IMG/VR virus record: IMGVR_UViG_2695420718_000005
Coordinates: 1-19,638 of that record
Strand: one strand, 5' to 3'
DNA length: 19,638 nucleotides
Origin: a virus
Lineage: Duplodnaviria; Heunggongvirae; Uroviricota; Caudoviricetes
The notes beneath the pieces were generated by a model, which saw only the letters and a list, made by a program, of their open reading frames with translations, was not told the origin of the DNA and did not search any database. The position numbers were made by a program, and so were the translations under genes. This document shows, piece after piece, positions 1-17,000 of this stretch (the stretch's first letter is position 1; the number at the start of each line of letters is the position of its first letter).

Positions 1-89
1 CGATCTGTTGCCCTGGAAAGTTGATCTGAGCTCTCAGTAAATATCAATACGGTTCTGACGAGTCGCTTACAAACAAAAGGCTGGTTAAC

Positions 90-311
90 ATGAAAAAAAT
101 GGCAATTGTCGATAAAAAGGGTCTGGAGTACATTCCTAATATCGATCGTATGATCCGTGAGAAAGAATGTCGGGAGCTAACCACTCTTGCGAACAGCACA
201 CGCTGGAAGCTGGAGAAGGAAGGAAAATTTCCTAAGCGGATCAAGATTGGTTCCACTGCTGTTGCATATCGTCTTTCAGAAGTGCAGGCATGGATTAGGG
301 GAGAGTGGTAA
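90..311 (+). CDS. alpA: AlpA-family (prophage CP4-57-type) HTH transcriptional regulator
   Basis: 73-aa ORF; the stretch RELTTLANSTRWKLEKEGKFPKRIKIGSTAVAYRLSEVQAWI fits the AlpA/Phage_AlpA HTH pattern with a conserved Trp near the C-terminus; AAGG about 10 nt upstream of the ATG. An integrase would be expected upstream, outside the window. Confidence 0.8.
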   Translation: MKKMAIVDKKGLEYIPNIDRMIREKECRELTTLANSTRWKLEKEGKFPKRIKIGSTAVAYRLSEVQAWIRGEW

Positions 312-330
312 GAATTTAGACAGTGGATGT

Positions 331-357
331 AATCCTATGGGGTAAACCCATAGGATT
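331..357. terminator. Perfect 11-bp inverted repeat (aatcctatggg / cccataggatt, 5-nt loop) between convergent genes; possible bidirectional terminator
   Basis: Read directly: lies between the alpA stop (311) and the stop of the minus-strand 449-aa gene (363). No clear U-tract on either side, so intrinsic termination is uncertain. Confidence 0.35.
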
Positions 358-362
358 TGAAA

Positions 363-1712
363 TCACTTAAATTCAAATACGTGCGTAGTTGATGAGATTA
401 TATAATTAGGTGGTAAGTATTGAACTATTTCTCCATCTTCTTCAAAAATATGAATAACTCTTGGGAATAATTCAGGGTGTATAGGATTTAATGCCTTCGG
501 ATTATGAAACATGTATATTGCTGTACACCATGGTTCTTGATATGAAGGTGCATTGACAAGAGCAGTAAAAGGCATTGGGGTACAGCCTTCATCAGTTTTA
601 ATACCTCTAACGATGGATTTGACATTTTTTTGTTCAATCCCTGCCACTACTCCCATCCTATCAAATTTTGGGATGGTGGCATGTGTCGCAAGTAATATGG
701 CTGAGACATTCTCATTTTTATTAGAGCCGAAAAAATTAGATTGTATACTTCGATTTTCAAATAAATGTTGTTCAATTTTACTTCCAGAATCCATATCTAC
801 ACCATACAGATAGCTTTGTAGTGCTGGCATTGATATACTCATCGAAAATCTGCGTGAGTAATCGTGTAAAGCAATAATGAAAGGCTTTCCTTTTGTATGA
901 TCTAGTTCCCAATAGCATAATTTTAAGGGTTCAGGTTTATGCCTAACTTTCTTTAATAGAGTGCGGGCAAATTTGAATGGCATTTGTTCTTTTACATATC
1001 TCTGAAGATCTTCTACTGCCTCATGATCAAGTATCAATTTCTCGGTAGGTTCCTCTTGTTCTGCAACTGTGGCAGCTTCTACAGCAATATCAATGCCATT
1101 TTTTGAGATAATATAATCAGGTTGAGCATAATCTCTGCATATTACGAAATCCATTTCGTAGAAAACTGCGTTTAGATAAAGTTCGAATAAGCGAGAGTTA
1201 AATGAAGCACTCTGGAAATCTCTGATGAATATTCCATCAGGATCTTTACACCAATAAGCTAACTCTTGCATAACAATAAATGCAGGATAGTGTTTGGGTT
1301 CCTCAAGTAGCATTCTTAGATAAACGTTTTTTTTATGTTCTGGAACTTTGGCTAGGAATATTGAAAATGCCGACTCTGATTCGTCACCCTGTATAAAACA
1401 ACCGTTCTTGTGTAGTGATAATAGCTCTGGTATGGCTTTTTCCATATCAGTAATTAAATCATCTTTAGATTCACGGGATACAATTACTTTAATCGCTCTA
1501 AATTTTTTATCTAAATCCCTACCTAGAAATATAGCGTTGTAATCATTATCTATTTTACAAAAAACAATTGTTGCTAAGATCGTGACATCATCCTTTATAA
1601 ATTTGAACCAACAGATTTCCTCCGAAAAGGTTTTTACGTATGGTGTACGACCATAGAAAAATACATCAAATTGTTCTTTACTGATTTCTAGCATTTTGTG
1701 ACTTGTTGTCAT
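363..1712 (-). CDS. Hypothetical 449-aa protein, visibly AT-rich cargo gene; no family recognised
   Basis: Long uninterrupted minus-strand ORF, much more AT-rich than the flanking phage genes; 23 bp downstream of and co-oriented with the RHH gene. No Walker A or other motif I can name confidently; a weak PD-(D/E)xK-like pattern (FVICRD...PDYIIS...IDIAVEAAT) is only suggestive. Confidence 0.7.
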   Translation of the reverse strand: MTTSHKMLEISKEQFDVFFYGRTPYVKTFSEEICWFKFIKDDVTILATIVFCKIDNDYNAIFLGRDLDKKFRAIKVIVSRESKDDLITDMEKAIPELLSLHKNGCFIQGDESESAFSIFLAKVPEHKKNVYLRMLLEEPKHYPAFIVMQELAYWCKDPDGIFIRDFQSASFNSRLFELYLNAVFYEMDFVICRDYAQPDYIISKNGIDIAVEAATVAEQEEPTEKLILDHEAVEDLQRYVKEQMPFKFARTLLKKVRHKPEPLKLCYWELDHTKGKPFIIALHDYSRRFSMSISMPALQSYLYGVDMDSGSKIEQHLFENRSIQSNFFGSNKNENVSAILLATHATIPKFDRMGVVAGIEQKNVKSIVRGIKTDEGCTPMPFTALVNAPSYQEPWCTAIYMFHNPKALNPIHPELFPRVIHIFEEDGEIVQYLPPNYIISSTTHVFEFK

Positions 1713-1735
1713 AGAAGAATCCTTTATGCAAATTA

Positions 1736-1930
1736 TCAGCCTTTAGGTGTTATTCCTTGTTTTATTAGTTCGGCACGAGCCAGTTCTTTTAGCCAGTTAC
1801 CTAAGCTCATCCCTTCTTTGGCAGCGACATTAACCATTTGTTCTTTTAATTCTGGGTTAATACGGACTTGGAATGCTGGTGCTTTACCTGCACCTTTCGG
1901 TTGTTTATCACGTTGAATGATAGTTGACAT
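1736..1930 (-). CDS. Arc/MetJ-type ribbon-helix-helix DNA-binding protein (64 aa)
   Basis: PAFQVRINPELKEQMVNVAAKEGMSLGNWLKELARAEL resembles the Arc-repressor layout (N-terminal beta-strand then two helices); first gene of a two-gene minus-strand operon. Confidence 0.55.
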   Translation of the reverse strand: MSTIIQRDKQPKGAGKAPAFQVRINPELKEQMVNVAAKEGMSLGNWLKELARAELIKQGITPKG

Positions 1931-1952
1931 GTGTGTACCTATTGCTTAGTAT
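1924..1952 (+). promoter_or_regulatory. Candidate sigma70 promoter (TTGACA, 17-nt spacer, TAGTAT) reading rightward into the small-gene/primase operon
   Basis: ttgaca at 1924-1929, 17-nt spacer, tagtat at 1947-1952; overlaps the inverted repeat at 1931-1972. Confidence 0.4.
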
Positions 1953-1972
1953 GATTCTTGATAGGTACACAC
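1931..1972. promoter_or_regulatory. Perfect 12-bp inverted repeat (gtgtgtacctat ... ataggtacacac, 18-bp spacer); candidate operator
   Basis: Read directly; sits immediately 5' of the RHH gene start codon (minus strand) and overlaps the candidate rightward promoter, i.e. in the divergent control region. Confidence 0.45.
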
Positions 1973-2069
1973 CTTATCATGTTTTATTGCTATATAACAA
2001 CGCCCTGCAGTGCTCGCAACACATACAGGGCGTCTAACCACCAACGATAGCAACAGTATCGAGGTAGCT

Positions 2070-2273
2070 ATGAGAAATCATACCACACACCCGCAAGGGC
2101 GGGATTCGCACAACCTGAATAAATACATCTGGCGTTTTATCGCCCTGAGCACCGCACAACCACGCGTAATACACATCGAGGCCGCCAGCGAACAGGAAGC
2201 CCGCCAGCAATCCCCAACTGGCTACGTGATGATATTCGCCGCCCGTATTCGTCAGGAGGTGTGCCGTGCTTAA
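2070..2273 (+). CDS. Hypothetical small protein (67 aa from the internal ATG)
   Basis: ATG at 2070 preceded by GAGG; the longer ORF from 2010 lacks an RBS. Same strand and operon as the downstream coupled genes. Confidence 0.35.
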   Translation: MRNHTTHPQGRDSHNLNKYIWRFIALSTAQPRVIHIEAASEQEARQQSPTGYVMIFAARIRQEVCRA

Positions 2274-2451
2274 AACCTTCCGTGTATTTGCCCGAGCTGT
2301 TAACCCACTGGGCCACACAATTGGTATCACTCAGAACGTGAAGGCTGTTAATGTTCAGACGGCTATTGCTGCGGTGAGAAGCGAATCATCAGAATATGGC
2401 TTATCACAAGTCATTATTTCAGCAGTGTATGAATTAAAAGAGGTGCATTAA
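2266..2451 (+). CDS. Hypothetical small protein (61 aa)
   Basis: GTG start 6 nt after a strong AGGAGG RBS (2254-2259); stop overlaps the next start (ATGA at 2451). Confidence 0.45.
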   Translation: MLKTFRVFARAVNPLGHTIGITQNVKAVNVQTAIAAVRSESSEYGLSQVIISAVYELKEVH

Positions 2452-2642
2452 TGCAGGAAATCACATTACACGAAGCCGCTGAACGTGCGCACCAGACAGA
2501 AATTATTTGCCGCCTTCTTGAGGTATACCCGAACAAAATTACAGATGCTGATATATCCGCGCTGGCGAGCCTACTGGCGCGCCTTTCGGGAAGTGTCGCT
2601 AGTTTCCTGATTGAGGAAGAAAGTAAGCTGGTGGGGGATTAA
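2451..2642 (+). CDS. Hypothetical small protein (63 aa)
   Basis: Start overlaps the upstream stop; stop overlaps the next start; translationally coupled operon. Confidence 0.45.
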   Translation: MQEITLHEAAERAHQTEIICRLLEVYPNKITDADISALASLLARLSGSVASFLIEEESKLVGD

Positions 2643-2864
2643 ATGAATACAGAACGGGAAGTCTTTTTTAAATTGTTAGCATGTGCAGAAAGTTCATTAA
2701 CTTTAAATAATTCAGCAAAAGCAATATTAAATATGTGGCTTGATTGCATAAATGACAATGAAGATGCAAATATTGCTTATGGCCTGTTGTCACTTATTGA
2801 TGAATCAGCAGAAAAACTCAATGACGCAATAAATAGTGCCCTGCTATCAAATAAGTCGAGTTAA
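2643..2864 (+). CDS. Hypothetical small protein (73 aa), AT-rich
   Basis: ORF in the same coupled series. Confidence 0.4.
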   Translation: MNTEREVFFKLLACAESSLTLNNSAKAILNMWLDCINDNEDANIAYGLLSLIDESAEKLNDAINSALLSNKSS

Positions 2865-2881
2865 GTCGAGGAATAAATAAT

Positions 2882-3181
2882 ATGGAAATGAAAAATTCTG
2901 GCTTTATTGCCAGCGGCCCCGCTCGGCCTGAATTTATGAACGGCGATATTTACCGCGATAAATACGGCGGCACGGTAACGATTAAAGGCGTGGCAGAACG
3001 GCGCATCACTTACCGCCGTGAGGGGTATAGCTATGACTGCGTGATGCCTGTTTATCAGTTCCGGCGTGATTTTTCCCTGGTATATGCCGCACCCCGCAGT
3101 AAGCCCATCAGCAGGGAAAAAGCGCGGGGAAACATCCAGAAAATGAAAAGCATGATTAACGCATTCAGGGGCAAAAAATGA
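2882..3181 (+). CDS. Hypothetical protein (99 aa); stop overlaps the primase start
   Basis: ATG at 2882 preceded by gaggaataaataat; the stop overlaps the ATG of the 583-aa gene (ATGA at 3178-3181). Confidence 0.5.
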   Translation: MEMKNSGFIASGPARPEFMNGDIYRDKYGGTVTIKGVAERRITYRREGYSYDCVMPVYQFRRDFSLVYAAPRSKPISREKARGNIQKMKSMINAFRGKK

Positions 3182-4929
3182 AACTGGCACCGAACTTAAA
3201 AAAACAGCCACGCGACAGACTGACAGAGGTAATCATCTTTGCAGGTAGTGATGCGTGGAGCCATGCGAAAGAGTGGCGGGAATGGGCGGGTAAACATATT
3301 GCCGCCGACGATGTGCCGCCTGTCGTGCTGGCTGATGAGCAACTGAAAAATATCACCGATTACCGGATCATTGATGAAGATCGTCAGTGTGTGCGTGTTT
3401 ACCGCGCAGGACATATCACAGAGCACAGCATGACGCAGATTGTTACGTTACTGGCTGTGGCTGGAGTGAAGACCGTACACGAATACGCGGGGATTACTGA
3501 CACCAGCCCAGTGGATTTATCCGAGCAGTTGCCGCGACTCAAAGAGGAATGCGAGCGTGGGGAAAGTCTGGTGCTTAATCTTCCGACGAAGCAAAAGGCG
3601 CAACTTTCACAGATGGCAGACAGTGAACGTGCACAACTACTTGCCGATCGCTTTGATGGTGTGTGTGTTCATGCAGAAAGTGAAATCGTCCACGTATGGC
3701 GCGGCGGGGTATGGTGTCCGGTCAGCACAATGGAGCTGAGCCGCGAAATGGTGGCGATCTATTCAGAGCACAGGGCCACGTTCAGCAAACGTGTAATCAA
3801 TAACGCCGTGGAAGCGTTAAAAGTTATTGCCGACCCCATGGGGGAGCCGTCCGGTGATTTGCTACCGTTCACTAATGGTGTGCTTAACCTGAAAACGGGG
3901 GAATTTTCTCCGCACTCGCCGGAGCACTGGAGCACCACGCACAATGGCATTGAGTACACGCCACCAGTAGCAGGGGAAAACATCCGCGATAATGCGCCAA
4001 ATTTCCATAAATGGCTTGAACATGCTGCAAGAAAAGACCCGCGTAAGATGATGCGTATATGTGCCGCGTTATACATGATTATGGCGAACCGCTACGACTG
4101 GCAGATGTTCATTGAGGCCACCGGAGACGGGGGAAGCGGTAAGAGTACATTTACCCATATTGCCACCCTGCTTGCTGGCAAACAGAACACCGTAAGCGCG
4201 GAGATGACATCACTCGATGATGCAGGAGGGCGCGCGCAGGTTGTCGGGAGTCGTCTTATCGTCCTTGCCGATCAGCCGAAATATACGGGGGAAGGCACGG
4301 GCATCAAGAAAATCACGGGAGGCGATCCCGTTGAAATTAACCCGAAATATGAGAAGCGATTCACGACGATAATAAGGGCGGTGGTACTGGCAACCAATAA
4401 CGACCCGATGATCTTTACCGAACGGGCCGGAGGTGTGTCACGCCGTCGGGTGATTTTCCGGTTCGACAACATTGTAAGGGAGGACGAAAAAGACAAGGAA
4501 TTACCGGAAAAGATAGCGGCAGAAATCCCCGTAATTATCCGCCGCTTGCTGGCTAATTTTGCTGCCCCTGAAAAGGCACGGGCTTTATTACTGGAACAGC
4601 GTGACGGTGATGAAGCTCTGGCAATAAAGCAGCAAACGGATCCGGTTGTTGAGCTTTGCGCGGCGCTGGAGTTTCTGGAGGAAGCTCGTGGGCTAATGAT
4701 GGGCGGTGGTGGTGACACCGTGAAGTACACGACCAGAAACAGCCTTTACCGTGTCTATATGGCCTTCATGGCATACACAGGAAAGGGGAAATGTTTGAGC
4801 GTGAATGAGTTCGGAAAGGCTATGAGGTCAGCGGCGAAAGTTTACGGATATGAATATATTACGCGAAAAGTTAAGGGAGTCACGCAGACCAACGCAACGA
4901 CTACTGATGATTGCGATGCGTTTTTATAA
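3178..4929 (+). CDS. P4-family phage/plasmid primase C-terminal domain / D5-N-like SF3 helicase replication protein (583 aa)
   Basis: Walker A motif GDGGSGKST in the context typical of P4 alpha / PICI Pri-Rep C-terminal helicase domains; immediately followed by an iteron array. Confidence 0.85.
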   Translation: MKLAPNLKKQPRDRLTEVIIFAGSDAWSHAKEWREWAGKHIAADDVPPVVLADEQLKNITDYRIIDEDRQCVRVYRAGHITEHSMTQIVTLLAVAGVKTVHEYAGITDTSPVDLSEQLPRLKEECERGESLVLNLPTKQKAQLSQMADSERAQLLADRFDGVCVHAESEIVHVWRGGVWCPVSTMELSREMVAIYSEHRATFSKRVINNAVEALKVIADPMGEPSGDLLPFTNGVLNLKTGEFSPHSPEHWSTTHNGIEYTPPVAGENIRDNAPNFHKWLEHAARKDPRKMMRICAALYMIMANRYDWQMFIEATGDGGSGKSTFTHIATLLAGKQNTVSAEMTSLDDAGGRAQVVGSRLIVLADQPKYTGEGTGIKKITGGDPVEINPKYEKRFTTIIRAVVLATNNDPMIFTERAGGVSRRRVIFRFDNIVREDEKDKELPEKIAAEIPVIIRRLLANFAAPEKARALLLEQRDGDEALAIKQQTDPVVELCAALEFLEEARGLMMGGGGDTVKYTTRNSLYRVYMAFMAYTGKGKCLSVNEFGKAMRSAAKVYGYEYITRKVKGVTQTNATTTDDCDAFL

Positions 4930-4942
4930 AAAATGGCAATGG

Positions 4943-5171
4943 TTATCTACCTTGTCTACCTGACTGAAAGAAAATACTTTTATTTCAATGTATTAATGCA
5001 GGTAGATAACTATTTTTCACTGTCTACCTGTTATCTACCTTATCTACCCATTTTTGTAGACAGGTAAGGAGACGGGTAGAGATGAGGTAGACAGCTATTT
5101 GGGGCTGTCTACCTCCCTGAAACCCGCGCCATTACTGGCCTGATAACTAATCAGGTAGACAAGGTAGACAA
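4943..5171. repeat. Iteron array (about 11 copies of GGTAGAYA / TRTCTACC in both orientations) with AT-rich flanks; candidate replication origin
   Basis: Read directly: ttatctacc-ttgtctacc (4943-4960), ggtagataa (5001-5009), tgtctacc / ttatctacc / ttatctacc (5021-5048), gtagacagg (5056-5064), ggtagaca (5087-5094), tgtctacc (5106-5113), ggtagacaa-ggtagacaa (5154-5171); AT-rich stretch at 4967-4998. Confidence 0.75.
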
Positions 5172-5218
5172 GGTGGTGGTGCACAAAAAACTTTTTAAAC
5201 GAGGGGGTAAAAATAAAA

Positions 5219-5476
5219 ATGCACACATCAGGAAAACTGAACAAACATATAAAGCCACATTACCGCGCCCTTGATATGGCTGAACACTGGCTAAGGGTGG
5301 CGATTAAGGCAATAGACCGCAACGCCGGGGAAGGATACGCGAAAGCACATCCCGAACTGATAAGCGCATTCATGACAACGGCGGCTGCAAACTTTGCCAC
5401 GCTGACCGAACGGGAGATTGCTGAAGCGGAGGAAGTGACAACAATCAATATTAAGTCCGGAGAGCAGGCAGCATGA
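5219..5476 (+). CDS. Hypothetical protein (85 aa)
   Basis: ORF directly downstream of the iterons; its stop overlaps the ssb start (ATGA at 5473). Confidence 0.5.
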   Translation: MHTSGKLNKHIKPHYRALDMAEHWLRVAIKAIDRNAGEGYAKAHPELISAFMTTAAANFATLTEREIAEAEEVTTINIKSGEQAA

Positions 5477-5922
5477 CGGCGCAAATATCAGTTTACGGGC
5501 GGTTGGTGGACGACCCGCAGACAAAACAGACCAGCAAGGGCACCCCCATGACGCTGGCGCGTATGGCGGTATCACTGCCCTGCAGTCAGTCGGATGACGG
5601 TCTGGCGACGTTGTGGTTATCTGTCCTGGCGTTTGGCAGACAAGCCGACGCGCTGGCAAAGCATCACAAAGGCGAACTCCTGAGCGTGGCGGGTAACATG
5701 CAGATGAGCCAGTGGACTGGACAGAACGGCGAAACGCGGCAGGGCTGGCAGGTTATCGCAGACAGCGTAATCAGTGCGCGATCGGTGCGACCGGGCGGCA
5801 AAAAAGGCCAACAGGGGCAGGCTACTGACGCACTGAACAGAGCAAAACAACAGGCAGATCAGCAAGGAAGCCAGCCACCAGAGGGAGATAATGAGCAATG
5901 GGGAGATGATATCCCGTTTTAA
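5473..5922 (+). CDS. ssb: Single-stranded DNA-binding protein (149 aa)
   Basis: N-terminal OB-fold-like region, Gln/Gly-rich linker and the diagnostic acidic C-terminal tail ending DDIPF (E. coli SSB ends DDDIPF). Confidence 0.85.
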   Translation: MTAQISVYGRLVDDPQTKQTSKGTPMTLARMAVSLPCSQSDDGLATLWLSVLAFGRQADALAKHHKGELLSVAGNMQMSQWTGQNGETRQGWQVIADSVISARSVRPGGKKGQQGQATDALNRAKQQADQQGSQPPEGDNEQWGDDIPF

Positions 5923-5940
5923 ATATTGCCAATAAAAAAA

Positions 5941-5964
5941 GCCGGAAAAAATAAATTTTCCGGC
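5941..5964. other. Palindrome gccggaaaa-aataaa-ttttccggc between ssb and the capsid-like gene
   Basis: Perfect 9-bp arms read directly; could be a terminator-like structure or a protein-binding site. Confidence 0.3.
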
Positions 5965-6138
5965 ATGCTACATAAATCCCGACCAAAGGGAGTGAAGATA
6001 TTAACACTAATTGTCCGCACTGAAGTTGTCACCCCAAAACTTTATACAACATTGCACTCGGTTGCATGTGTTCGCATGACAAATATCGGTGATAGCATAT
6101 ATCCACAATTATTTTTAATGAATGCAAAGAGGATGCGT

Positions 6139-7179
6139 ATGGTTGATTTATATTCGCCTACCCAGCTTGTACAGGTGGTTAATGCTGTAGATGTACAAAA
6201 ACAACTAAATGCGTTGTTTACCAGTTTGTTTTTTACTCGCTCGGTAATGTTTGGATCGCGCGATATTATTCTTGATACAATCGACGATCCAAATATCCCA
6301 ATTGCAGCGTTTTGTTCTCCTATGGTGGGTAGTAAAGTTTCACGTGACGAAGGGTACGAATCAAAAACAATTCGTCCAGGCTATATGAAGCCGAAAAGCA
6401 GCATTGATCCAAATAAGTTAGCTGTGCGCCCTGCTGGTGTATCACCTGAGCAATACAATGCTTTTGGGGCGCGTAATATTAAAGTTAAACAGGCGATTGT
6501 AAATCAAGCTAAAGCTATTCGTGCACGTATTGAATGGCTTGCCGTTCAGGCAATCACAACGGGGAAAAATATCATTGAGGGCGATGGTATTGAACGTTAT
6601 GAGCTGGACTGGAATATTAAACCACAAAATATCATCACTCAGTCTGGCGGTACTGAGTGGTCAGGTAAGGATAAAGAAACTTTTGATCCAAATGATGATA
6701 TTGAGAGCTACGCAGAATTTAGTGAGGGCGTCACTAATATCATCATTATGGGCGGTAATGTATGGAAGAAATACCGTTCATTCAGAGCGATAAAAGAGGC
6801 TCTGGATACCCGTCGTGGTTCTAATTCCGAACTGGAAACGGCCCTTAAAGACCTTGGTGATTCGGTGAGTTTTAAAGGATATATGGGCGATGTTGCGATT
6901 GTTGTTTACAGCGGGCGTTATACCGACGAGGACGGAACTGAAAAACATTTCCTTGATCCTGATTTGATGGTGCTTGGCAATACGGCTCTTCAGGGGATTG
7001 TCGCCTATGGCGGTATTCAGGATCCGGAGCTAATCCGAATGGGGCTGACTAAAGCCGAACTTGCACCGAAAAACTATATTGTGCCTGGTGATCCGGCTAT
7101 TGAATATGTGCAGACACATTCAGCACCACAGCCAATACCGGCCCGCATCAATCGTTTTGTTACCGTTCGCATTGGCTAA
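6139..7179 (+). CDS. Major capsid protein, diverged homologue of lambda gpE (347 aa from the RBS-preceded ATG)
   Basis: Segments PGYMKPK, ITQSGGTEWSGKDKETFDPNDDIESYA and LDTRRGSNSELETALKDLGDSVSFKGYMGDVAIVVYSG align with remembered lambda E; AAAGAGGA RBS before the ATG at 6139. The longer ORF from 5926 has no homology in its extension. Confidence 0.8.
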   Translation: MVDLYSPTQLVQVVNAVDVQKQLNALFTSLFFTRSVMFGSRDIILDTIDDPNIPIAAFCSPMVGSKVSRDEGYESKTIRPGYMKPKSSIDPNKLAVRPAGVSPEQYNAFGARNIKVKQAIVNQAKAIRARIEWLAVQAITTGKNIIEGDGIERYELDWNIKPQNIITQSGGTEWSGKDKETFDPNDDIESYAEFSEGVTNIIIMGGNVWKKYRSFRAIKEALDTRRGSNSELETALKDLGDSVSFKGYMGDVAIVVYSGRYTDEDGTEKHFLDPDLMVLGNTALQGIVAYGGIQDPELIRMGLTKAELAPKNYIVPGDPAIEYVQTHSAPQPIPARINRFVTVRIG

Positions 7180-7188
7180 GGGGGAGCA

Positions 7189-7530
7189 ATGGCTACTCAT
7201 TACACTGAACTCATGGCTGGCACTGAAGCACTGGTGACTACGCTGGGGATATTTTCAGCTAATAAAGGGGTAATTCCTGCATTTACGCCACTGATGCAGG
7301 AAGATGCAACAGGTGCACTGGTGGTATGGGATGGTTCGAGCGTAGGTAAAGCGGTTTATGTTTCCGCTGTACAAATCGACACCGCGAAAAAAACACAGGC
7401 TCAGGTCTATAAGACAGGTGTCTTAAATGTTGATGCTCTGAACTGGCCTGAGTCTGTAAAAGAACTGTCAGTAAAGATTGCAGCGTTTGTTGGCTCAGGT
7501 ATTTCTGTTCAGCCGCTGGCTCGTGTGTAA
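7189..7530 (+). CDS. Head decoration protein, lambda gpD-like (113 aa)
   Basis: PAFTPLMQEDATGALVVWDG, YKTGVLNVDALNWPE and AAFVGSGISV align with remembered lambda D (TPLMLDTSSRKLVAWDG, YKSGTFRYEDVLWPE, TAFAGTAISI); GGGGGAG RBS. Confidence 0.75.
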   Translation: MATHYTELMAGTEALVTTLGIFSANKGVIPAFTPLMQEDATGALVVWDGSSVGKAVYVSAVQIDTAKKTQAQVYKTGVLNVDALNWPESVKELSVKIAAFVGSGISVQPLARV

Positions 7531-7541
7531 AGGGGGATACA

Positions 7542-7925
7542 ATGCAAAATGATTACAATGACCTTAAGCCAATTGCCGAAATGATGTACCCGAATCCAGC
7601 TGTAGAGGAATTAAAAGCTATCGCTGACAAAATGTGTTTAAGCGAGCGCCTTGTTGATATGAATCAGGTGATGGAAATTACAACCCTGAGTCGGCGTACA
7701 CTGCTAAACCTTGAGGCTAGTGGAGAGTTCCCGGAGCGTGTGCAGGTTACGGAAGGGCGTAAGGCCTGGTATTTAAGTGAAGTGATCGACTGGATAAATA
7801 ATATTCCTCGCGCTTCTGAATATTGCCGCGTACCTGTCCCAAAAAAGCCAGATGCGGCGCTATGCCTCAAGATTGAGCGTGTACGCCGCAATGCACGGGA
7901 TGGTCGCTATAAGCTGATTGGTTGA
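7542..7925 (+). CDS. AlpA-like HTH DNA-binding protein with N-terminal extension (127 aa)
   Basis: MEITTLSRRTLLNLEASGEFPERVQV...WYLSEVIDWI fits the AlpA-type HTH pattern; AGGGGGA RBS; located immediately upstream of the cos site. Confidence 0.6.
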   Translation: MQNDYNDLKPIAEMMYPNPAVEELKAIADKMCLSERLVDMNQVMEITTLSRRTLLNLEASGEFPERVQVTEGRKAWYLSEVIDWINNIPRASEYCRVPVPKKPDAALCLKIERVRRNARDGRYKLIG

Positions 7926-7933
7926 TGAAATTA

Positions 7934-7962
7934 GGGCCCGCTCTGGCTGGCGGGTCCTTTCC
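7934..7962 (+). terminator. Candidate intrinsic terminator (gggcccgc-tctggctg-gcgggtcc followed by tttcc)
   Basis: GC-rich imperfect hairpin followed by a short T-run, just after the 127-aa gene stop. Confidence 0.4.
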
Positions 7963-7981
7963 GGCGATCTGACAGGCTACG

Positions 7982-7993
7982 GGGCGTCAGGCG
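7982..7993. other. cosN-equivalent (gggcgtcaggcg), divergent from lambda cosN GGGCGGCGACCT
   Basis: Position and flanks (acg before, cgcgg-attttcgc after) correspond to the lambda cohesive-end region as I recall it; 5 of 12 positions differ. Confidence 0.55.
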
Positions 7994-7998
7994 CGCGG

Positions 7999-8170
7999 AT
8001 TTTCGCTATTTATGAAAATTTTCCGGTTTAAGGCGTTTCCGTTCTTCTTCGTCGTAACTTAATGTTTTTATTTAAAATACCCCCTGAAAAGAAAGGAAAC
8101 GACAGGTGCTGAAAGCGAGCTTTTTGGCCTCTGTCGTTTCCTTTCTCTGTTTTTGTCCGTGGAATGAACA
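7999..8170 (+). promoter_or_regulatory. Lambda-type cosB with Nu1-binding repeats R3, R2, R1 (CGTTTCC / GGAAACG)
   Basis: attttcgctatttatgaaaattttccggtttaaggcgtttccgttcttcttcg ... aaaggaaacgacaggtg ... ctgtcgtttcctttctc matches my recollection of the lambda left end nearly base for base; three CGTTTCC-type repeats read directly. Confidence 0.75.
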
Positions 8171-8722
8171 ATGGAAGTCAACAAAAAGCAGCTGGCTGAC
8201 ATTTTCGGTGCGAGTATCCGTACCATTCAGAACTGGCAGGAACAGGGAATGCCCGTTCTGCGAGGCGGTGGCAAGGGTAATGAGGTGCTTTATGACTCTG
8301 CCGCCGTTATAAGATGGTATGCCGAAAGGGATGCTGAAATTGAGAACGAAAAGCTGCGCCGGGAAGTTGAAGAACTGCGGCAGGCCAGCGAGACAGATCT
8401 CCAGCCAGGGACTATTGAGTACGAACGCCATCGACTTACGCGTGCGCAGGCCGACGCACAGGAACTGAAGAATGCCAGCGAAACAGGTGAGGTAATTGAC
8501 ACTGCATTTGCGACTTATGCCTTGTCGAAATTAACTGGGGAAGTTGGAGCAATCATTGATAGTCTTCCACTTGCGATCTGTCGACAGTTTCCTGGCATGG
8601 AAAAACGGTATCAGGACTTCATTAAGATGGAGGTCAGTAAAGCATTTATTCGAGCTTACCAGATCTCAGATAACATTCCAGATATGGCTGAAAGGTATAT
8701 CAAGGATAATCAGCGAAGTTAA
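8171..8722 (+). CDS. Nu1: Terminase small subunit Nu1 (183 aa); N-terminal DNA-binding half lambda-like, C-terminal half diverged
   Basis: MEVNKKQLADIFGASIRTIQNWQEQGMPVLRGGGKGNEVLYDSAAV... is essentially lambda Nu1; the C-terminal ~70 aa are homologous but diverged. No gpA gene follows. Confidence 0.9.
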   Translation: MEVNKKQLADIFGASIRTIQNWQEQGMPVLRGGGKGNEVLYDSAAVIRWYAERDAEIENEKLRREVEELRQASETDLQPGTIEYERHRLTRAQADAQELKNASETGEVIDTAFATYALSKLTGEVGAIIDSLPLAICRQFPGMEKRYQDFIKMEVSKAFIRAYQISDNIPDMAERYIKDNQRS

Positions 8723-8778
8723 AACAAATGAAACCATAGGTAGGAAGAGTGCTTAGGTGGTTCTTTGTTGCTTAAAAG

Positions 8779-8810
8779 TCGCCAGTAAAACTGGCGATAG
8801 ATTTTATTTG
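8779..8810. terminator. Hairpin tcgccag-taaaa-ctggcga followed by tagattttatttg; candidate bidirectional terminator between Nu1 and the convergent 301-aa gene
   Basis: Perfect 7-bp stem and T-rich tract read directly; lies between convergent gene ends. Confidence 0.45.
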
Positions 8811-8828
8811 TCAAAAGCATTTGACCTT

Positions 8829-9734
8829 TTAAGGTAGTGGTACTATGGATATTTTTCTGTCGTTCCCAAATGAACTTTTAAATAATTTCGCTCTTGGATA
8901 CATTTTAACTAGTGATGCGACTTCATCGAACTCGCTGGCATCAAAAAGAGGACCAAGTATTACAGATTTTAACTCAAAAGGGTGAAATTTTAAGTCGCTA
9001 TATTGACCAGTGCTATTTGGCCTAGCGTAGGTTGAAATTCTCCACTCTCTTTCATATGCCCATTCTTCTGTTTTTATGAATATTATCTCATTATTGATAT
9101 ATTCAATTGACTTATTGTCTGGCATGAAAAGCAACTCGGCCATCCCTTCAGCAGTGTGAGTTAGAGGCATTTCATCTGTGTATTTCATAGGTTTGGCTAT
9201 TAACCAAGCGCTATCCAGAAAGTCTACACAATCAAATTCGATAACTATACCTTTATATTTATCGGCATAGTGATTCCACATAGGAGTGATTATAGGGCTC
9301 TCAGATAAACACAAAATCCTTCTGTTATTAAGCATTCCTCGCCAGACATCTTTCATTTCTTGTATTGCCGCAGGAGCGCCAATCCCAACTGGTGGAATGT
9401 TTACCATTTCTTGAAATCTTTCAATTAATCCTGCGGGTATGCCTAAAGGAAATGACTTTTGGAAATCACTTAGCATTGTTCTAATTCTAGGGTTTAAATT
9501 TTGTATGTCTTCTCTGGGGGTAATCAACTCCGCTATTAACTTGCGGGCTAAAGCTTTGCCAATATTAATTTCGTTAATACCAGGCATAACTTCTCTTGGA
9601 ACATCAAAAGGGTCATTAAATAGGACCGGAGAACTCCATCTAAGGCTGCATGAATCAAGAACAATCTTCGCGGTATTCAACGACATATACTTATAAAATG
9701 TTGAGCGTTCATGCATTCTGTTGGGTGAGCGCAT
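8829..9734 (-). CDS. Hypothetical 301-aa protein, AT-rich moron; motif pattern reminiscent of the DUF2971 family (unverified recollection)
   Basis: Long minus-strand ORF, strongly AT-rich relative to the flanking lambda genes; motifs FYKYMSL, FNDPFD, RILCLSESPIITPMWNHYADKYKGIVIEFD. It occupies the position where lambda A through Nu3, D and E-5' would be. Confidence 0.7.
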   Translation of the reverse strand: MRSPNRMHERSTFYKYMSLNTAKIVLDSCSLRWSSPVLFNDPFDVPREVMPGINEINIGKALARKLIAELITPREDIQNLNPRIRTMLSDFQKSFPLGIPAGLIERFQEMVNIPPVGIGAPAAIQEMKDVWRGMLNNRRILCLSESPIITPMWNHYADKYKGIVIEFDCVDFLDSAWLIAKPMKYTDEMPLTHTAEGMAELLFMPDNKSIEYINNEIIFIKTEEWAYEREWRISTYARPNSTGQYSDLKFHPFELKSVILGPLFDASEFDEVASLVKMYPRAKLFKSSFGNDRKISIVPLP

Positions 9735-9870
9735 AGATTCCTCTTGTTAAATGAGTGATGGTTTTCATCCATGTATTGCACGTTGTATTGCATTCAAGGA
9801 TTTTCCATTTCAATTCTATAGCTAAAACGTAATCAAATCATTCACATCCTTTCATATTTGACTCATGTAG

Positions 9871-10659
9871 CCGAAGCATGAGGTGAATCCGCAGATGACC
9901 CTGCGTCGCCTGCCGGATGAAGATCCGCAGAATCTGGCGGACCCGGCTTACCGCCGCCGTCGCATCATCATGCAGAACATGCGAGACGAAGAGCTGGCCA
10001 TTGCTCAGGTCGAAGAGATGCAGGCAGTTTCTGCTGTGCTTAAGGGCAAATACACCATGACCGGTGAAGCCTTCGATCCGGTTGAGGTGGATATGGGCCG
10101 CAGTGCGGCGAACAACATCACACAGTCCGGTGGTACGGAGTGGAGCAAGCGTGACAAGTCCACGTATGACCCGACCGACGATATCGAAGCCTATGCGCTG
10201 AACGCCAGCGGAGTGGTGAATATCATCGTGTTTGATCCGAAAGGCTGGGCGCTGTTCCGTTCCTTCAAAGCCGTCAAGGAGAAGCTGGATACCCGTCGCG
10301 GCTCTAATTCCGAGCTGGAGACAGCGGTAAAAGACCTGGGCGAAGCGGTGTCCTATAAGGGGATGTATGGCGATACGGCGATCGTCGTGTATTCCGGACA
10401 GTACGTGGAAAACGACGTCAAAAAGAACTTCCTTCCGGACAACACGATGGTGCTGGGGAACTCTCAGGCACGCGGTCTGCGCACCTATGGCTGCATTCAG
10501 GATGCGGACGCACAGCGCGAAGGTATTAACGCCTCTGCCCGCTACCCGAAAAACTGGGTGACCACCGGCGATCCGGCGCGTGAGTTCACCATGATTCAGT
10601 CAGCACCGCTGATGCTGCTGGCTGACCCTGATGCGTTCGTGTCCGTACAACTGGCGTAA
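9871..10659 (+). pseudogene. E: 5'-truncated major capsid gene E (lambda gpE residues ~90 to end)
   Basis: Translation PKHEVNPQMTLRRLPDEDPQNLADPAYRRRRIIMQNMRDEEL... matches lambda E almost residue for residue; homology stops abruptly near 9866-9870, where an in-frame TAG (9868-9870) is present; no proper N-terminus or RBS. Confidence 0.8.
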
Positions 10660-13629: not shown

Positions 13630-14045
13630 GTTTTGCCCTGAAACTGGCGCGTGAGATGGGGCGACCCGACTGGCGTGCCATGCTTGCCGGGATGTCATCC
13701 ACGGAGTATGCCGACTGGCACCGCTTTTACAGTACCCATTATTTTCATGATGTTCTGCTGGATATGCACTTTTCCGGGCTGACGTACACCGTGCTCAGCC
13801 TGTTTTTCAGCGATCCGGATATGCATCCGCTGGATTTCAGTCTGCTGAACCGGCGCGAGGCTGACGAAGAGCCTGAAGATGATGTGCTGATGCAGAAAGC
13901 GGCAGGGCTTGCCGGAGGTGTCCGCTTTGGCCCGGACGGGAATGAAGTTATCCCCGCTTCCCCGGATGTGGCGGACATGACGGAGGATGACGTAATGCTG
14001 ATGACAGTATCAGAAGGGATCGCAGGAGGAGTCCGGTATGGCTGA
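13207..14045 (+). CDS. G-T: G-T tail assembly chaperone fusion produced by -1 frameshift (T portion 13611..14045)
   Basis: The -1 frame ORF after the slippery site encodes ...FDGELSFALKLAREMGRPDWRAMLAGMSSTEYADWHRFY..., matching the lambda T region; no independent RBS or start. Confidence 0.8.
13605..13611 (+). promoter_or_regulatory. Programmed -1 ribosomal frameshift slippery heptamer G GGA AAG (G to G-T)
   Basis: GGGAAAG read in the G frame near the 3' end of G; the -1 frame continues as the T ORF to 14045. Confidence 0.8.
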
Positions 14046-17000
14046 ACCTGTAGGCGATCTGGTCGTTGATTTGAGTCTGGATGCGGCCAGATTTGACGAG
14101 CAGATGGCCAGAGTCAGGCGTCATTTTTCCGGTACGGAAAGTGATGCGAAAAGAACAGCGGCAGTCGTTGAACAGTCGCTGAGCCGACAGGCGCTGGCTG
14201 CACAGAAAGCGGGGATTTCCGTCGGGCAGTATAAAGCCGCCATGCGTATGCTGCCTGCACAGTTCACCGACGTGGCCACGCAGCTTGCAGGCGGGCAAAG
14301 TCCGTGGCTGATCCTGCTGCAACAGGGGGGGCAGGTGAAGGACTCCTTCGGCGGGATGATCCCCATGTTCAGGGGGCTTGCCGGTGCGATCACCCTGCCG
14401 ATGGTGGGGGCCACCTCGCTGGCGGTGGCGACCGGTGCGCTGGCGTATGCCTGGTATCAGGGCAACTCAACCCTGTCCGATTTCAACAAAACGCTGGTCC
14501 TTTCCGGTCATCAGTCGGGTCTGACGGCAGATCGTATGCTGGTCCTGTCCAGAGCCGGGCAGGCGGCAGGGCTGACGTTTAACCAGACCAGCGAGTCACT
14601 CAGCGCACTGGTTAAGGCGGGGGTAAGCGGTGAGGCTCAGATTGCGTCCATCAGCCAGAGTGTGGCGCGTTTCTCCTCTGCATCCGGCGTGGAGGTGGAC
14701 AAGGTCGCTGAAGCCTTCGGGAAGCTGACCACAGACCCGACGTCGGGGCTGACGGCGATGGCACGCCAGTTCCATAACGTGACGGCGGAGCAGATTGCGT
14801 ATGTTGCTCAGTTGCAGCGTTCCGGCGATGAAGCCGGGGCATTGCAGGCGGCGAACGAGGCCGCAACGAAAGGGTTTGATGACCAGACCCGCCGCCTGAA
14901 AGAGAACATGGGCACGCTGGAGACCTGGGCAGACAGGACTGCGCGGGCATTCAAATCCATGTGGGATGCGGTGCTGGATATTGGTCGTCCTGATACCGCG
15001 CAGGAGATGCTGATTAAGGCAGAGGCTGCGTTTAAGAAAGCAGACGACATCTGGAATCTGCGCAAGGATGATTATTTTGTTAACGATGAAGCGCGGGCGC
15101 GTTACTGGGATGATCGTGAAAAGGCCCGTCTTGCGCTTGAAGCCGCCCGAAAGAAGGCTGAGCAGCAGACTCAACAGGACAAAAATGCGCAGCAGCAGAG
15201 CGATACCGAAGCGTCACGGCTGAAATATACCGAAGAGGCGCAGAAGGCTTACGAACGGCTGCAGACACCGCTGGAGAAATATACCGCCCGTCAGGAAGAA
15301 CTGAACAAGGCACTGAAAGACGGGAAAATCCTGCAGGCAGATTACAACACGCTGATGGCGGCGGCGAAAAAGGATTATGAAGCGACGCTGAAAAAGCCGA
15401 AACAGTCCGGCGTGAAAGTGTCTGCGGGCGATCGTCAGGAAGACAGTGCTCATGCTGCCCTGCTGACGCTTCAGGCAGAACTCCGGACGCTGGAGAAGCA
15501 TGCCGGAGCAAATGAGAAAATCAGCCAGCAGCGCCGGGATTTGTGGAAGGCGGAGAGTCAGTTCGCGGTACTGGAGGAGGCGGCGCAACGTCGCCAGCTG
15601 TCTGCACAGGAGAAATCCCTGCTGGCGCATAAAGATGAGACGCTGGAGTACAAACGCCAGCTGGCTGCACTTGGCGACAAGGTTACGTATCAGGAGCGCC
15701 TGAACGCGCTGGCGCAGCAGGCGGATAAATTCGCACAGCAGCAACGGGCAAAACGGGCCGCCATTGATGCGAAAAGCCGGGGGCTGACTGACCGGCAGGC
15801 AGAACGGGAAGCCACGGAACAGCGCCTGAAGGAACAGTATGGCGATAATCCGCTGGCGCTGAATAACATCATGTCAGAGCAGAAAAAGACCTGGGCGGCT
15901 GAAGACCAGCTTCGCGGGAACTGGATGGCAGGCCTGAAGTCCGGCTGGAGTGAGTGGGAAGAGAGCGCCACGGACAGTATGTCGCAGGTAAAAAGTGCAG
16001 CCACGCAGACCTTTGATGGTATTGCACAGAATATGGCGGCGATGCTGACCGGCAGTGAGCAGAACTGGCGCAGCTTCACCCGTTCCGTGCTGTCCATGAT
16101 GACAGAAATTCTGCTTAAGCAGGCAATGGTGGGGATTGTCGGGAGTATCGGCAGCGCCATTGGCGGGGCTGTTGGTGGCGGCGCATCCGCGTCAGGCGGT
16201 ACAGCCATTCAGGCCGCTGCGGCGAAATTCCATTTTGCAACCGGAGGATTTACGGGAACCGGCGGCAAATATGAGCCAGCGGGGATTGTTCACCGTGGTG
16301 AGTTTGTCTTCACGAAGGAGGCAACCAGCCGGATTGGCGTGGGGAATCTTTACCGGCTGATGCGCGGCTATGCCACCGGCGGTTATGTCGGTACACCGGG
16401 CAGCATGGCAGACAGCCGGTCGCAGGCGTCCGGGACGTTTGAGCAGAATAACCATGTGGTGATTAACAAAGGACTGATGGCGATGGCGCGCCAGTTCCGT
16501 AACGTGACGGCAGAGCAGATTGCGTATGTTGCACAGCTGCAGCGTTCCGGAGACGAGGCCGGGGCATTGCAGGCGGCGAACGATATCGCCACGAAAGGCT
16601 TTGATGAGCAGACCCGTCGCCTGAAAGAAAACATGGGAACACTGGAGACCTGGGCGGATAAAACAGGGAAGGCATTCAAATCGATGTGGGATGCCATTCT
16701 GGATATCGGTCGTCCTGAATCCTCAGCGGATATGCTCGCCAGTGCGCAGAAGGCATTTGATGAGGCGGATAAAAAATGGCAGTGGTACCAGAGCCGGAGC
16801 CAGCGCCGGGGAAAGACCTCCTCTTTTCGTGCGAACCTTCAGGGGGCATGGGATGACAGGGAAAATGCCCGTCTGGGTCTGGCAGCGGCCACGCTGCAGT
16901 CGGATATGGAAAAAGCCGGTGAACTGGCGGCAAGGGACCGGGCTGAGCGTGAGGCGTCACAGCTGAAGTATACCGGAGAGGCGCAGAAGGCGTATGAGCG

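Follow-up and report, generated by a model that had tools for sequence, protein, structure and literature searches.

The 19,638-nucleotide viral DNA analysed here (the window) carries, from about position 70 to position 9878, a Gram-negative PICI, a type of phage satellite. It is helper-embedded (HE-PICI, or HES), interrupting gene E of a lambdoid prophage at about codon 80, in the same orientation as its helper. Among its genes is a canonical 'capsid morphogenesis' module of its own, formed by a major-capsid-protein homologue (E-like) and a head-decoration homologue (D-like). These assignments are made with high confidence and, judging by sequence divergence, the same confidence attaches to the view that the pair represents a branch of the lambda E and D families that has long resided in satellites, and not a recent copy of helper genes. 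The best guess for its role, held with moderate-to-low confidence, is a cognate shell subunit and cement protein that would use the helper portal and scaffold; taken as a whole, element identity and mechanism together, this explanation has about an even chance of being right. The arrangement, an HE-PICI in E and a PICI capsid/decoration pair, is already known from the literature. Helper-embedded PICIs were described at exactly this gene E site, with 201 instances and a 10-bp identity block, by Tommasini et al. 2023 (NAR Genom Bioinform; PMC10111431), while PICI capsid and decoration genes come from Fillol-Salom et al. 2018 (PMC6092414) and the crystal structure 3BQW has been around since 2008.

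At the right end of the satellite lies a 10-bp att core, AGCCGAAGCA (9869-9878, + strand), and the identical 10-mer is found at both attL and attR of a related locus, L001, which measures 11.1 kb from one to the other, against about 10-20 kb expected of a Gram-negative PICI. Joining the attL side of L001 to the attR side of the window reconstructs an attB with an intact 341-aa E. The earlier note had seen a truncated second E reading frame downstream of the pair; the frame is indeed there (9871-10659, + strand, about 2.7 kb from the satellite E), but instead of being truncated it is the attR-side part of the helper lambda-type E (codons ~79-341), split by the satellite and followed by FI, FII, Z, U, V, G, T, H, M, and L. 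The main satellite genes are all on the + strand, the same as the helper late genes. The architecture of relatives reads Nu1-A-W-B-C-D-E' / int-alpA-...-pri-SSB-E-D-HTH-... / 'E-FI..., close relatives having helper Nu1-A-W-B-C-D-E' and the satellite integrase directly upstream of the stretch equivalent to the window. The att core, the reconstructed helper E, and this architecture identify the pair as satellite-borne, as had been proposed, and not as a rearranged head module.

In all close relatives, a tyrosine integrase (a 411-aa tyrosine recombinase) stands immediately 5' of alpA. At the left edge of the window, the expected place of the int 3' end is occupied by the right end of the IS66-family element ISCro1 (1-69), which matches ISCro1 ends in more than 1800 genomes at 100%. 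The junction between this IS and the satellite falls at the point where, in relatives, only the final ~19 nt of the integrase gene remain; from nt 70 on, the window is homologous to related HE-PICIs, and nt 70 corresponds to 19 nt ahead of the int stop codon in L001. Both attL and int are outside the window and, because its left end is an IS, this copy may have lost the ability to excise.

Next come the regulator and replication genes by which PICIs are recognised: alpA, of the satellite regulator/excisionase family (90-311, + strand; Pfam Phage_AlpA E=2.7e-15), and a primase/helicase (3178-4929, + strand; D5_N, DUF5906, Pox_D5), followed by an SSB gene (5473-5922, + strand; Pfam SSB E=2e-15). 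The packaging and capsid module consists of the E-like and D-like genes, a cos region, and a Nu1-like gene, with no other structural gene from nt 70 to attR. Between positions 70 and 9868, neither open reading frames nor profile searches gave a portal, protease, scaffold, or TerL, in agreement with what had been noticed beside the pair from the sequence alone. Two accessory genes lie on the - strand: an anti-phage gene of the PD-T7-1 family (363-1712; PADLOC PD-T7-1 E=1e-153, full length) and, identified by profile matches, a DUF2971 gene for a PDC-S31 candidate defence protein (8829-9734). The Eco567.11capE group (E:Phage_cap_E:80 HE-PICIs; PMC10111431) resembles the window in the insertion site at E codon ~80, the 10-bp att block, the co-orientation with the late genes, and the int-alpA-...-pri-SSB-capsid-... 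order, its satellite being said to 'bear its own capsid gene'. The window differs from it by its cargo (PD-T7-1, DUF2971), its left-end ISCro1, and its Nu1-type terS, which 11capE is said to lack.

The E-like gene (6139-7179, + strand) starts with ATG behind an AAGAGG Shine-Dalgarno sequence and encodes 346 aa, matched end to end by Pfam Phage_cap_E (E=2e-41, profile positions 4-327 of 329). The protein also aligns over its full length with PDB 3BQW (E=2e-121, ~55% identity) and with lambda gpE (E=6e-77). Its AlphaFold2 model (pTM 0.76) superposes on 3BQW with a TM-score of 0.82 and on lambda gpE with 0.76-0.78, indicating that the homologue, noted earlier as diverged but intact, keeps a complete HK97-type fold. 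It is a putative subunit of the capsid shell. The D-like gene follows after a gap of 9 nt (7189-7530, + strand, 113 aa); it is matched by Pfam HDPD/gpD (E=4e-15), by the SHP of phage 21 (PDB 1TD0, E=6e-16), and by lambda gpD (7VII_H, E=1e-11).

This order is the reverse of the D-E order of lambda, as had been pointed out. A survey of related elements, which had been suggested as a check, found E ahead of D in every one of the 15 satellite loci covered; these span six genera, and their insertion sites are of at least four kinds, namely helper E, the helper portal, chromosomal sites, and a tail cluster of a myovirus. In all helpers and phages examined, D precedes E. Since a scan for relatives using one genome per species gave only 4 loci, the survey rests on E. 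coli genomes and individual protein look-ups. The distribution bears on the proposal of Tommasini et al. (PMC10111431), also raised in the earlier note, that the pair is only a back-up, supplying E while the embedded satellite splits the helper gene. In favour of this proposal, the window has no other intact E-family gene than that of the satellite, and the element may be locked in place by its left-end IS. Nevertheless, the pair is also present in free-standing chromosomal PICIs without an interrupted helper and in a portal-gene HE-PICI beside an intact helper E, its lineage predates any single insertion by far, and the D-like gene is always kept although the helper D is never interrupted. 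As the general reason for the pair, complementation of a split E is contradicted by this, and a back-up function as its sole role is quite improbable. The constant retention of the D-like gene beside an intact helper D is counted, with moderate-to-low confidence, as support for a cognate pair.

Among 50,697 phage genomes, the closest phage capsid protein to the E-like protein is lambda E, at 42% identity, and the satellite gene shares 43% amino acid and 51% nucleotide identity with the E of its own helper. Estimates of dN/dS are about 0.02-0.09 for the E-like gene and 0.04-0.12 for the D-like gene (non-synonymous 0.07-0.13 versus synonymous 0.6-0.8 per site), and the pair is intact even in a decayed relative in which pri, SSB, and terS are broken. 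These substitution rates place both genes under strong purifying selection and show the pair to have some function.

The central segment of the E-like protein had been singled out as far closer to lambda E than the rest, and mosaic recombination had been suggested. The first part holds: in this patch (6790-6930, + strand; motif LDTRRGSNSxLExALKDLG..VSFKGY.GD.A..VYSG), amino acid identity to the helper E is 77%, compared with 35% in the remainder. Two further observations could favour gene conversion of the patch from a lambda-type E: a perfect DNA identity of 29 nt between satellite E and some prophage E alleles (6802-6830), and one metagenome scaffold (L009/P0043) with a hybrid E, helper at its 5' side and satellite at its 3' side, the crossover falling cleanly at the patch. 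The hybrid may, however, be an assembly artefact, because its junction is in no complete E. coli genome and no more than 29 nt of identity is shared. When 36 non-redundant satellite-clade proteins are compared with 22 phage-clade proteins, identity between the clades peaks precisely in this patch, at residues 222-261 (68% versus 41% overall). Furthermore, identical residues use the same codon at 15 of 34 positions in the patch, compared with 30 of 79 and 17 of 32 outside it, so that synonymous sites are as diverged there as elsewhere, and nucleotide identity between satellite E and helper E reaches at most 77% per 60 nt. As judged by alignments and codons, conservation across the whole protein family is highest in the patch, in both clades, and the patch is not a product of mosaic recombination; a recent conversion is ruled out for this window by the codon comparison and the family-wide conservation, and next to no probability is given to it.

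The pair also has a conserved promoter-like region of its own (6052-6098, + strand), recognised as a footprint across related loci. It comprises three TTGCAY repeats with 10-bp phasing (6052-6077) and an extended -10, TGATAGCAT, at 6090-6098. When six loci from five genera are aligned, the positions of TGnTAnnAT and of the TTG.A repeats are invariant and the flanking bases vary. The repeat pair is at the equivalent position in 10 out of 10 loci with the 346-aa clade, the sole other match within those loci being one reverse-strand site in L006. A consensus promoter scan gave no + strand promoter 5' of the E-like gene, and the proposed promoter function is inferred from the phylogenetic footprint. 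Upstream of it, in the gap between the SSB gene and the capsid operon, lies a GC-rich hairpin (5941-5964), and other genera have hairpins of different sequence in the same place.

In the mechanism considered best, the E-like and D-like genes and the AlpA-family HTH gene that follows would be transcribed from this regulated promoter, and the first two products would be matched to each other as HK97-fold shell subunit and trimeric cement protein. Because the satellite is without portal, scaffold, protease, and TerL, the E-like protein could only assemble on the helper portal/Nu3/C machinery, where it would replace or mix with helper gpE, and the D-like protein would then stabilise the lattice containing it. 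The pair would be redundant while helper gpE is available, and would gain importance when there is no available or suitable helper E, for instance when E is still split by the embedded satellite, or with defective helpers. At 43% identity, it is uncertain whether the E-like protein co-assembles with helper gpE or is recognised by the helper Nu3 or portal. Lambda gpE and gpD belong to the same Pfam families as the window's proteins, with a fold alignable over its full length and a conserved central motif, but identity is only 42% for E and ~38% for D, the gene order is reversed, and, unlike in lambda, no portal, protease/scaffold, or FI adjoins the pair.

The nearest studied homologues are c1499 (capsid, PDB 3BQW, 55% identical) and c1500 (head decoration) of EcCICFT073 (Fillol-Salom et al., ISME J 2018; PMC6092414). 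They belong to the same two families as the pair of the window, in the same E-then-D order and likewise between replication and packaging genes, although EcCICFT073 is a free-standing chromosomal PICI with RppA instead of a Nu1-type TerS and with a capsid protein of a 351-aa subclade. Deletion of c1499 or c1500 altered neither interference nor transfer, and the DNA packaged by EcCICFT073 with lambda was phage-sized (PMC6092414). Both results count against the shell/cement mechanism, and redundancy with helper gpE would explain the silent deletions; no function for PICI capsid or decoration genes was found in the literature after 2018.

The same results weigh on the analogy with Ccm, in which the E-like protein, with the D-like protein to stabilise it, would favour heads small enough to take a single ~11-kb satellite genome but not the genome of the helper. 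SaPIbov5 Ccm works, like the E-like protein would, as a satellite-encoded homologue of the helper major capsid protein, Pasteurella PmCI172 encodes such a homologue and makes small capsids, and SatelliteFinder classes the E-like gene as a PICI 'capsid morphogenesis' component; the strong constraint on the pair also suits a functional role of this kind. However, only phage-sized DNA was packaged by EcCICFT073 with lambda, the deletions did not relieve interference, and the E-like protein has a full-length, unremarkable HK97 fold. Ccm itself has a demonstrated size-redirection and interference phenotype, which the nearest studied homologue of the E-like protein has not, and it has neither a partner decoration gene nor any sequence relationship to the E-like protein. 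Size redirection of this kind is unlikely.

A role in interference or defence, with the E-like protein as a decoy subunit that poisons the assembly of capsids by the helper or by rival lambdoid phages, is considered rather unlikely too. Interference with helpers is a PICI trait, as is the carriage of defence cargo, which here comprises PD-T7-1 and DUF2971/PDC-S31. Furthermore, Rpp, which alone blocks lambda, was still present in the published test that gave a negative result, so that a contribution of c1499 would have been masked. A pure poison, however, needs neither a co-conserved cement protein nor a complete, highly constrained fold, and no such phenotype has been reported.

If the shell/cement mechanism is preferred, the satellite may tentatively be read as 'half capsid-forming', i.e., as making a shell of its own proteins on the helper portal, scaffold, and protease, with a dedicated activator-dependent promoter (the three phased TTGCAY repeats and the extended -10); this bolder version is possible but doubtful. 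It would be intermediate between classical PICIs and the cf-PICIs (Alqurainy et al. 2023), which share with the window the encoding of a capsid protein of their own, but build complete capsids and also encode portal, protease, head-tail connectors, and TerL; within nt 70-9868, no such additional gene is found. Such a satellite would explain the persistence of an ancient, constrained pair despite silent laboratory deletions, and the 29-nt identity with helper E alleles would then permit occasional hybrid capsid genes. The question is sharpened to the purpose of a pair that is ancient, missing from sequenced phages, constrained, and endowed with a conserved promoter-like region, yet dispensable in the only published tests. 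Its answer would show whether classical enterobacterial PICIs add their own shell proteins to transducing particles.

Directly 3' of the D-like gene, a second AlpA-family HTH protein of 127 aa is encoded (7542-7925, + strand; Pfam Phage_AlpA E=7.6e-9, phrog_2790 E=1e-49, PDB 8C3T E=2e-9), always at this place within the clade (L001, L006, L008, L010, L012, L016, L014). When it was considered as an Rpp candidate, a search of solved structures matched an AlpA structure only, and the L007 counterpart matched none. The satellite cos region follows (7958-8006, + strand). A search for the lambda cosN with up to 2 mismatches gave no match, and a variant cosN emerged from alignment with the helper, the 12-mer at 7982-7993 being GGGCGTCAGGCG in the satellite versus GGGCGGCGACCT in the helper. 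In the adjoining Nu1-type small terminase gene (8171-8722, + strand; Pfam Phage_Nu1 E=3.6e-84), codons 1-103 share, together with the upstream cos, 97% DNA identity with the helper cos and Nu1, and the C-terminal ~80 residues are diverged.

The E-like capsid gene and D-like decoration gene of the satellite form a canonical PICI module. The capsid frame (6139-7179, 346 aa, with AAGAGG ahead of its ATG) is intact and matches nearly the whole Pfam Phage_cap_E profile (E=2e-41), and after 9 nt it is followed by a decoration frame (7189-7530, 113 aa) matching HDPD, the lambda gpD family (E=4e-15), which bears out the coordinates and the E-then-D order of the earlier note. A survey of related elements for this order, proposed at the same time, found it at chromosomal, portal and tail-cluster sites. 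Capsid, decoration, usually HTH and then packaging genes recur in this order at many kinds of insertion site, including free-standing chromosomal E. coli PICIs in the cspD/clpS (L006) and roxA/phoQ (L007) intervals. The module also occurs in Kluyvera, Superficieibacter, Cedecea and Kosakonia, in an HE-PICI (helper-embedded PICI) of Edwardsiella tarda (L013) that is inserted in the helper portal gene, with helper D and E intact a few kb downstream, and in a Salmonella enterica element (L014) lying within a cluster of contractile-tail genes, in a prophage whose head genes are lambda-like. In all helpers and phages examined, D precedes E. The model E. coli PICI EcCICFT073 carries the same pair, c1499 and c1500 (PMC6092414), and SatelliteFinder counts a capsid gene of this kind as a core PICI component.

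Upstream of the pair lie alpA (90-311), a D5-type primase gene (3178-4929) and an SSB gene (5473-5922); downstream are a second AlpA-family HTH gene (7542-7925), a Nu1-type small terminase gene (8171-8722) with a cos region between the two, and a DUF2971 gene (8829-9734, minus strand) matching PADLOC candidate PDC-S31. A second E-family frame (9871-10659) is the 3' part of helper E and begins a typical lambdoid late region (FI, FII, Z, U, V, G, T, H, M, L). The stretch between the two E-family frames indeed has no portal, protease, scaffold or large-terminase gene, and the satellite lacks every other component for head building. There are 47 complete E. coli genomes collinear with at least 80% of the window. 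In the five inspected, helper Nu1-A-W-portal-protease-D-E' precedes the satellite (integrase-alpA-cargo-primase-SSB-capsid-decoration-HTH-cargo), and 'E-FI-... follows. Portal, protease and terminase genes do, in these relatives, lie just outside the window, but they belong to the helper, beyond the left junction (attL), and do not make the pair an ordinary head module, the case that the earlier note had set against its own reading.

The 10-mer AGCCGAAGCA is common to both junctions (window copy at 9869-9878), and a lambda-type E of 341 aa, free of interruption, is recovered when the attL side of the relative L001 is joined to the window's attR side. It follows that what had been taken for a truncated lambda E is the right-hand half of a satellite-split gene. 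The element is the HE-PICI (HES) described by Tommasini, Mageeney and Williams at site E:Phage_cap_E:80, with 201 instances (PMC10111431). It has the make-up of a Gram-negative PICI and the configuration of an HE-PICI, apart from the integrase, which falls outside the window; as it carries no portal, protease, connector or TerL gene, it is not a capsid-forming PICI. The literature already describes the arrangement as well as the gene pair, and the remaining interest lies in the function of this conserved satellite capsid/cement pair.

The window E-like protein matches PDB 3BQW, "putative capsid protein of prophage (E. coli CFT073)", with E=2e-121. Superposition of its AlphaFold model (pLDDT 72, pTM 0.76) spans the full length with 3BQW (TM 0.82) as well as with lambda gpE (TM 0.76-0.78), so the HK97-type fold is complete, which answers the earlier question about it. 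Among eight satellite loci, dN/dS is about 0.02-0.09 for the E-like and 0.04-0.12 for the D-like gene, with non-synonymous differences of 0.07-0.13 and synonymous differences of 0.6-0.8 per site, the latter near saturation. The E-like protein shares 43% identity with its own helper's E (51% at the DNA level), and no protein in 50,697 phage genomes exceeds 42% identity to it, the best matches being lambda and its relatives. Both proteins are, in sum, intact, complete, co-inherited, strongly constrained and satellite-specific. In L012 (NZ_AP022177.1, 8073-19518), a degraded copy of this HE-PICI, IS1 splits the primase gene and SSB and terS contain internal stops, yet the E-like gene and the D-like gene are both intact.

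The patch at 6790-6930 (FRAIKEALDTRRGSNSELETALKDLGDSVSFKGYMGDVAIVVYSGRY) is, as noted earlier, closer to lambda-type E, with 77% identity to helper E versus 35% elsewhere in the protein. The mosaic recombination proposed to explain it was rejected, because the higher similarity holds between nearly all pairs of family members and codon sharing is no higher inside the patch than outside. When 36 non-redundant proteins of the satellite clade are compared with 22 of the phage clade, identity is highest at residues 222-261 (68% versus 41% overall); the same codon is used at 15 of the 34 identical patch residues, against 30/79 and 17/32 outside, and the best-matching 60 nt of the two genes reach 77% DNA identity. 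By these comparisons, the patch is a conserved motif. It includes a 29-nt perfect match (6802-6830) to some prophage E alleles. Exactly there, a hybrid E gene on one metagenome scaffold (L009, 2801-3829, protein P0043) crosses over from the helper 5' two-thirds (first ~650 nt ~98% identical to helper E) to a satellite 3' third (~100% identical to the window E-like gene), with helper portal, protease and D upstream and the satellite D-like gene downstream. None of 5,426 complete E. coli genomes has the junction, and the hybrid could thus be an artefact of assembly. Three lambda-type E proteins of 423-517 aa (P0047, P0052 and P0054) contain extended tandem duplications within the protein, such as residues 1-243 and then 54-341, and 205 UniRef members fall in one cluster. 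The duplications may have been left by satellites that integrated or excised imprecisely, or may come from errors in assembly.

A GC-rich hairpin (5941-5964) lies 3' of SSB, and other genera have hairpins of unrelated sequence in the same place. In the capsid-gene upstream alignment of six loci from five genera, the extended -10 consensus TGnTAnnAT (window 6090-6098, TGATAGCAT) and the TTG.A positions of three 10-bp-spaced repeats (6052-6077) are invariant, while the flanking bases vary. Each of the ten loci of the 346-aa clade has the repeat pair at this position, and the one other match within them is on the reverse strand of L006. Lambda CII also recognises the pattern TTGC-N6-TTGC, which for these repeats is a lead only. 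The D-like and HTH genes follow gaps of 9 and 11 nt and have strong Shine-Dalgarno sequences. From these signals, we infer that the E-like, D-like and HTH genes form a separately regulated operon.

Regarding function, deletion of c1499 or c1500 leaves EcCICFT073 transfer unchanged and does not relieve interference, and the DNA packaged with lambda is phage-sized (PMC6092414). By analogy, these homologue data argue against placing the pair with Ccm, the capsid size-redirection protein of SaPIbov5, and size redirection is unlikely. Rpp, which blocks lambda on its own, was present in the published interference test, so the pair may still contribute to interference; that the E-like protein acts as a poison subunit is slightly less likely again. 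Least probable is that the pair backs up solely the split helper gene, an idea close to the complementation of a truncated E put forward earlier: chromosomal PICIs and the portal-inserted element carry the same pair and contradict this as a general explanation. Tentatively, we favor a role in which the E-like protein would be a shell subunit and the D-like protein its cognate cement, assembling on the portal, scaffold and protease that the helper supplies; the pair would be redundant when helper gpE is available and useful when it is not, including the time before an embedded satellite excises. The D-like gene is always kept beside an intact helper D, an argument that the lattice which the E-like protein builds or enters requires a cement of its own.

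In contrast to the E-like gene, the satellite cos site and Nu1 codons 1-103 share 97% DNA identity with those of the helper. The late zone thus has two layers, an old one comprising E, D and HTH and one captured recently. The small terminase (cos-Nu1 stretch 7950-8722) is a chimera, its last ~80 residues being strongly diverged from helper Nu1; the equivalent region of lambda Nu1 contacts gpA. At the position of the lambda 12-nt cohesive end (7982-7993; ~19847-19858 in L001), the satellite has GGGCGTCAGGCG and the helper the lambda sequence GGGCGGCGACCT, a difference of 5/12 bases within conserved flanking cos. The variant is common to two diverged HE-PICIs, and a 71-nt stretch containing it has matches, some partial, in 88 of 5,426 E. 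coli genomes; L006 and L007 keep a lambda-like cosN.

The helper tape-measure frame (14038-18336) encodes 1432 aa, versus ~853 aa in relatives. Compared with L001, it contains an internal repeat of ~1.26 kb (second copy ~90% identical) and ~480 nt unmatched, and two stretches match Pfam Tape_meas_lam_C. If the long frame is genuine, it would imply a much longer tail.

Positions 1-69 form the end of an ISCro1 element (IS66 family), and homology to related satellites starts at nt 70, which corresponds to a point 19 nt ahead of the stop codon of the integrase. With ISCro1 in place of the integrase 3' end, the integrase of the source genome is probably truncated or displaced, and this could lock the satellite inside helper E. 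Anti-phage candidates, both on the minus strand, occupy the two variable cargo positions: at 363-1712 a PD-T7-1 protein of full length (E=1e-153) and at 8829-9734 the DUF2971 protein. Relatives have an Abi protein, a restriction endonuclease or other DUF2971 proteins at these positions, and L013 has a 451-aa reverse-strand ORF in place of the PD-T7-1 gene.
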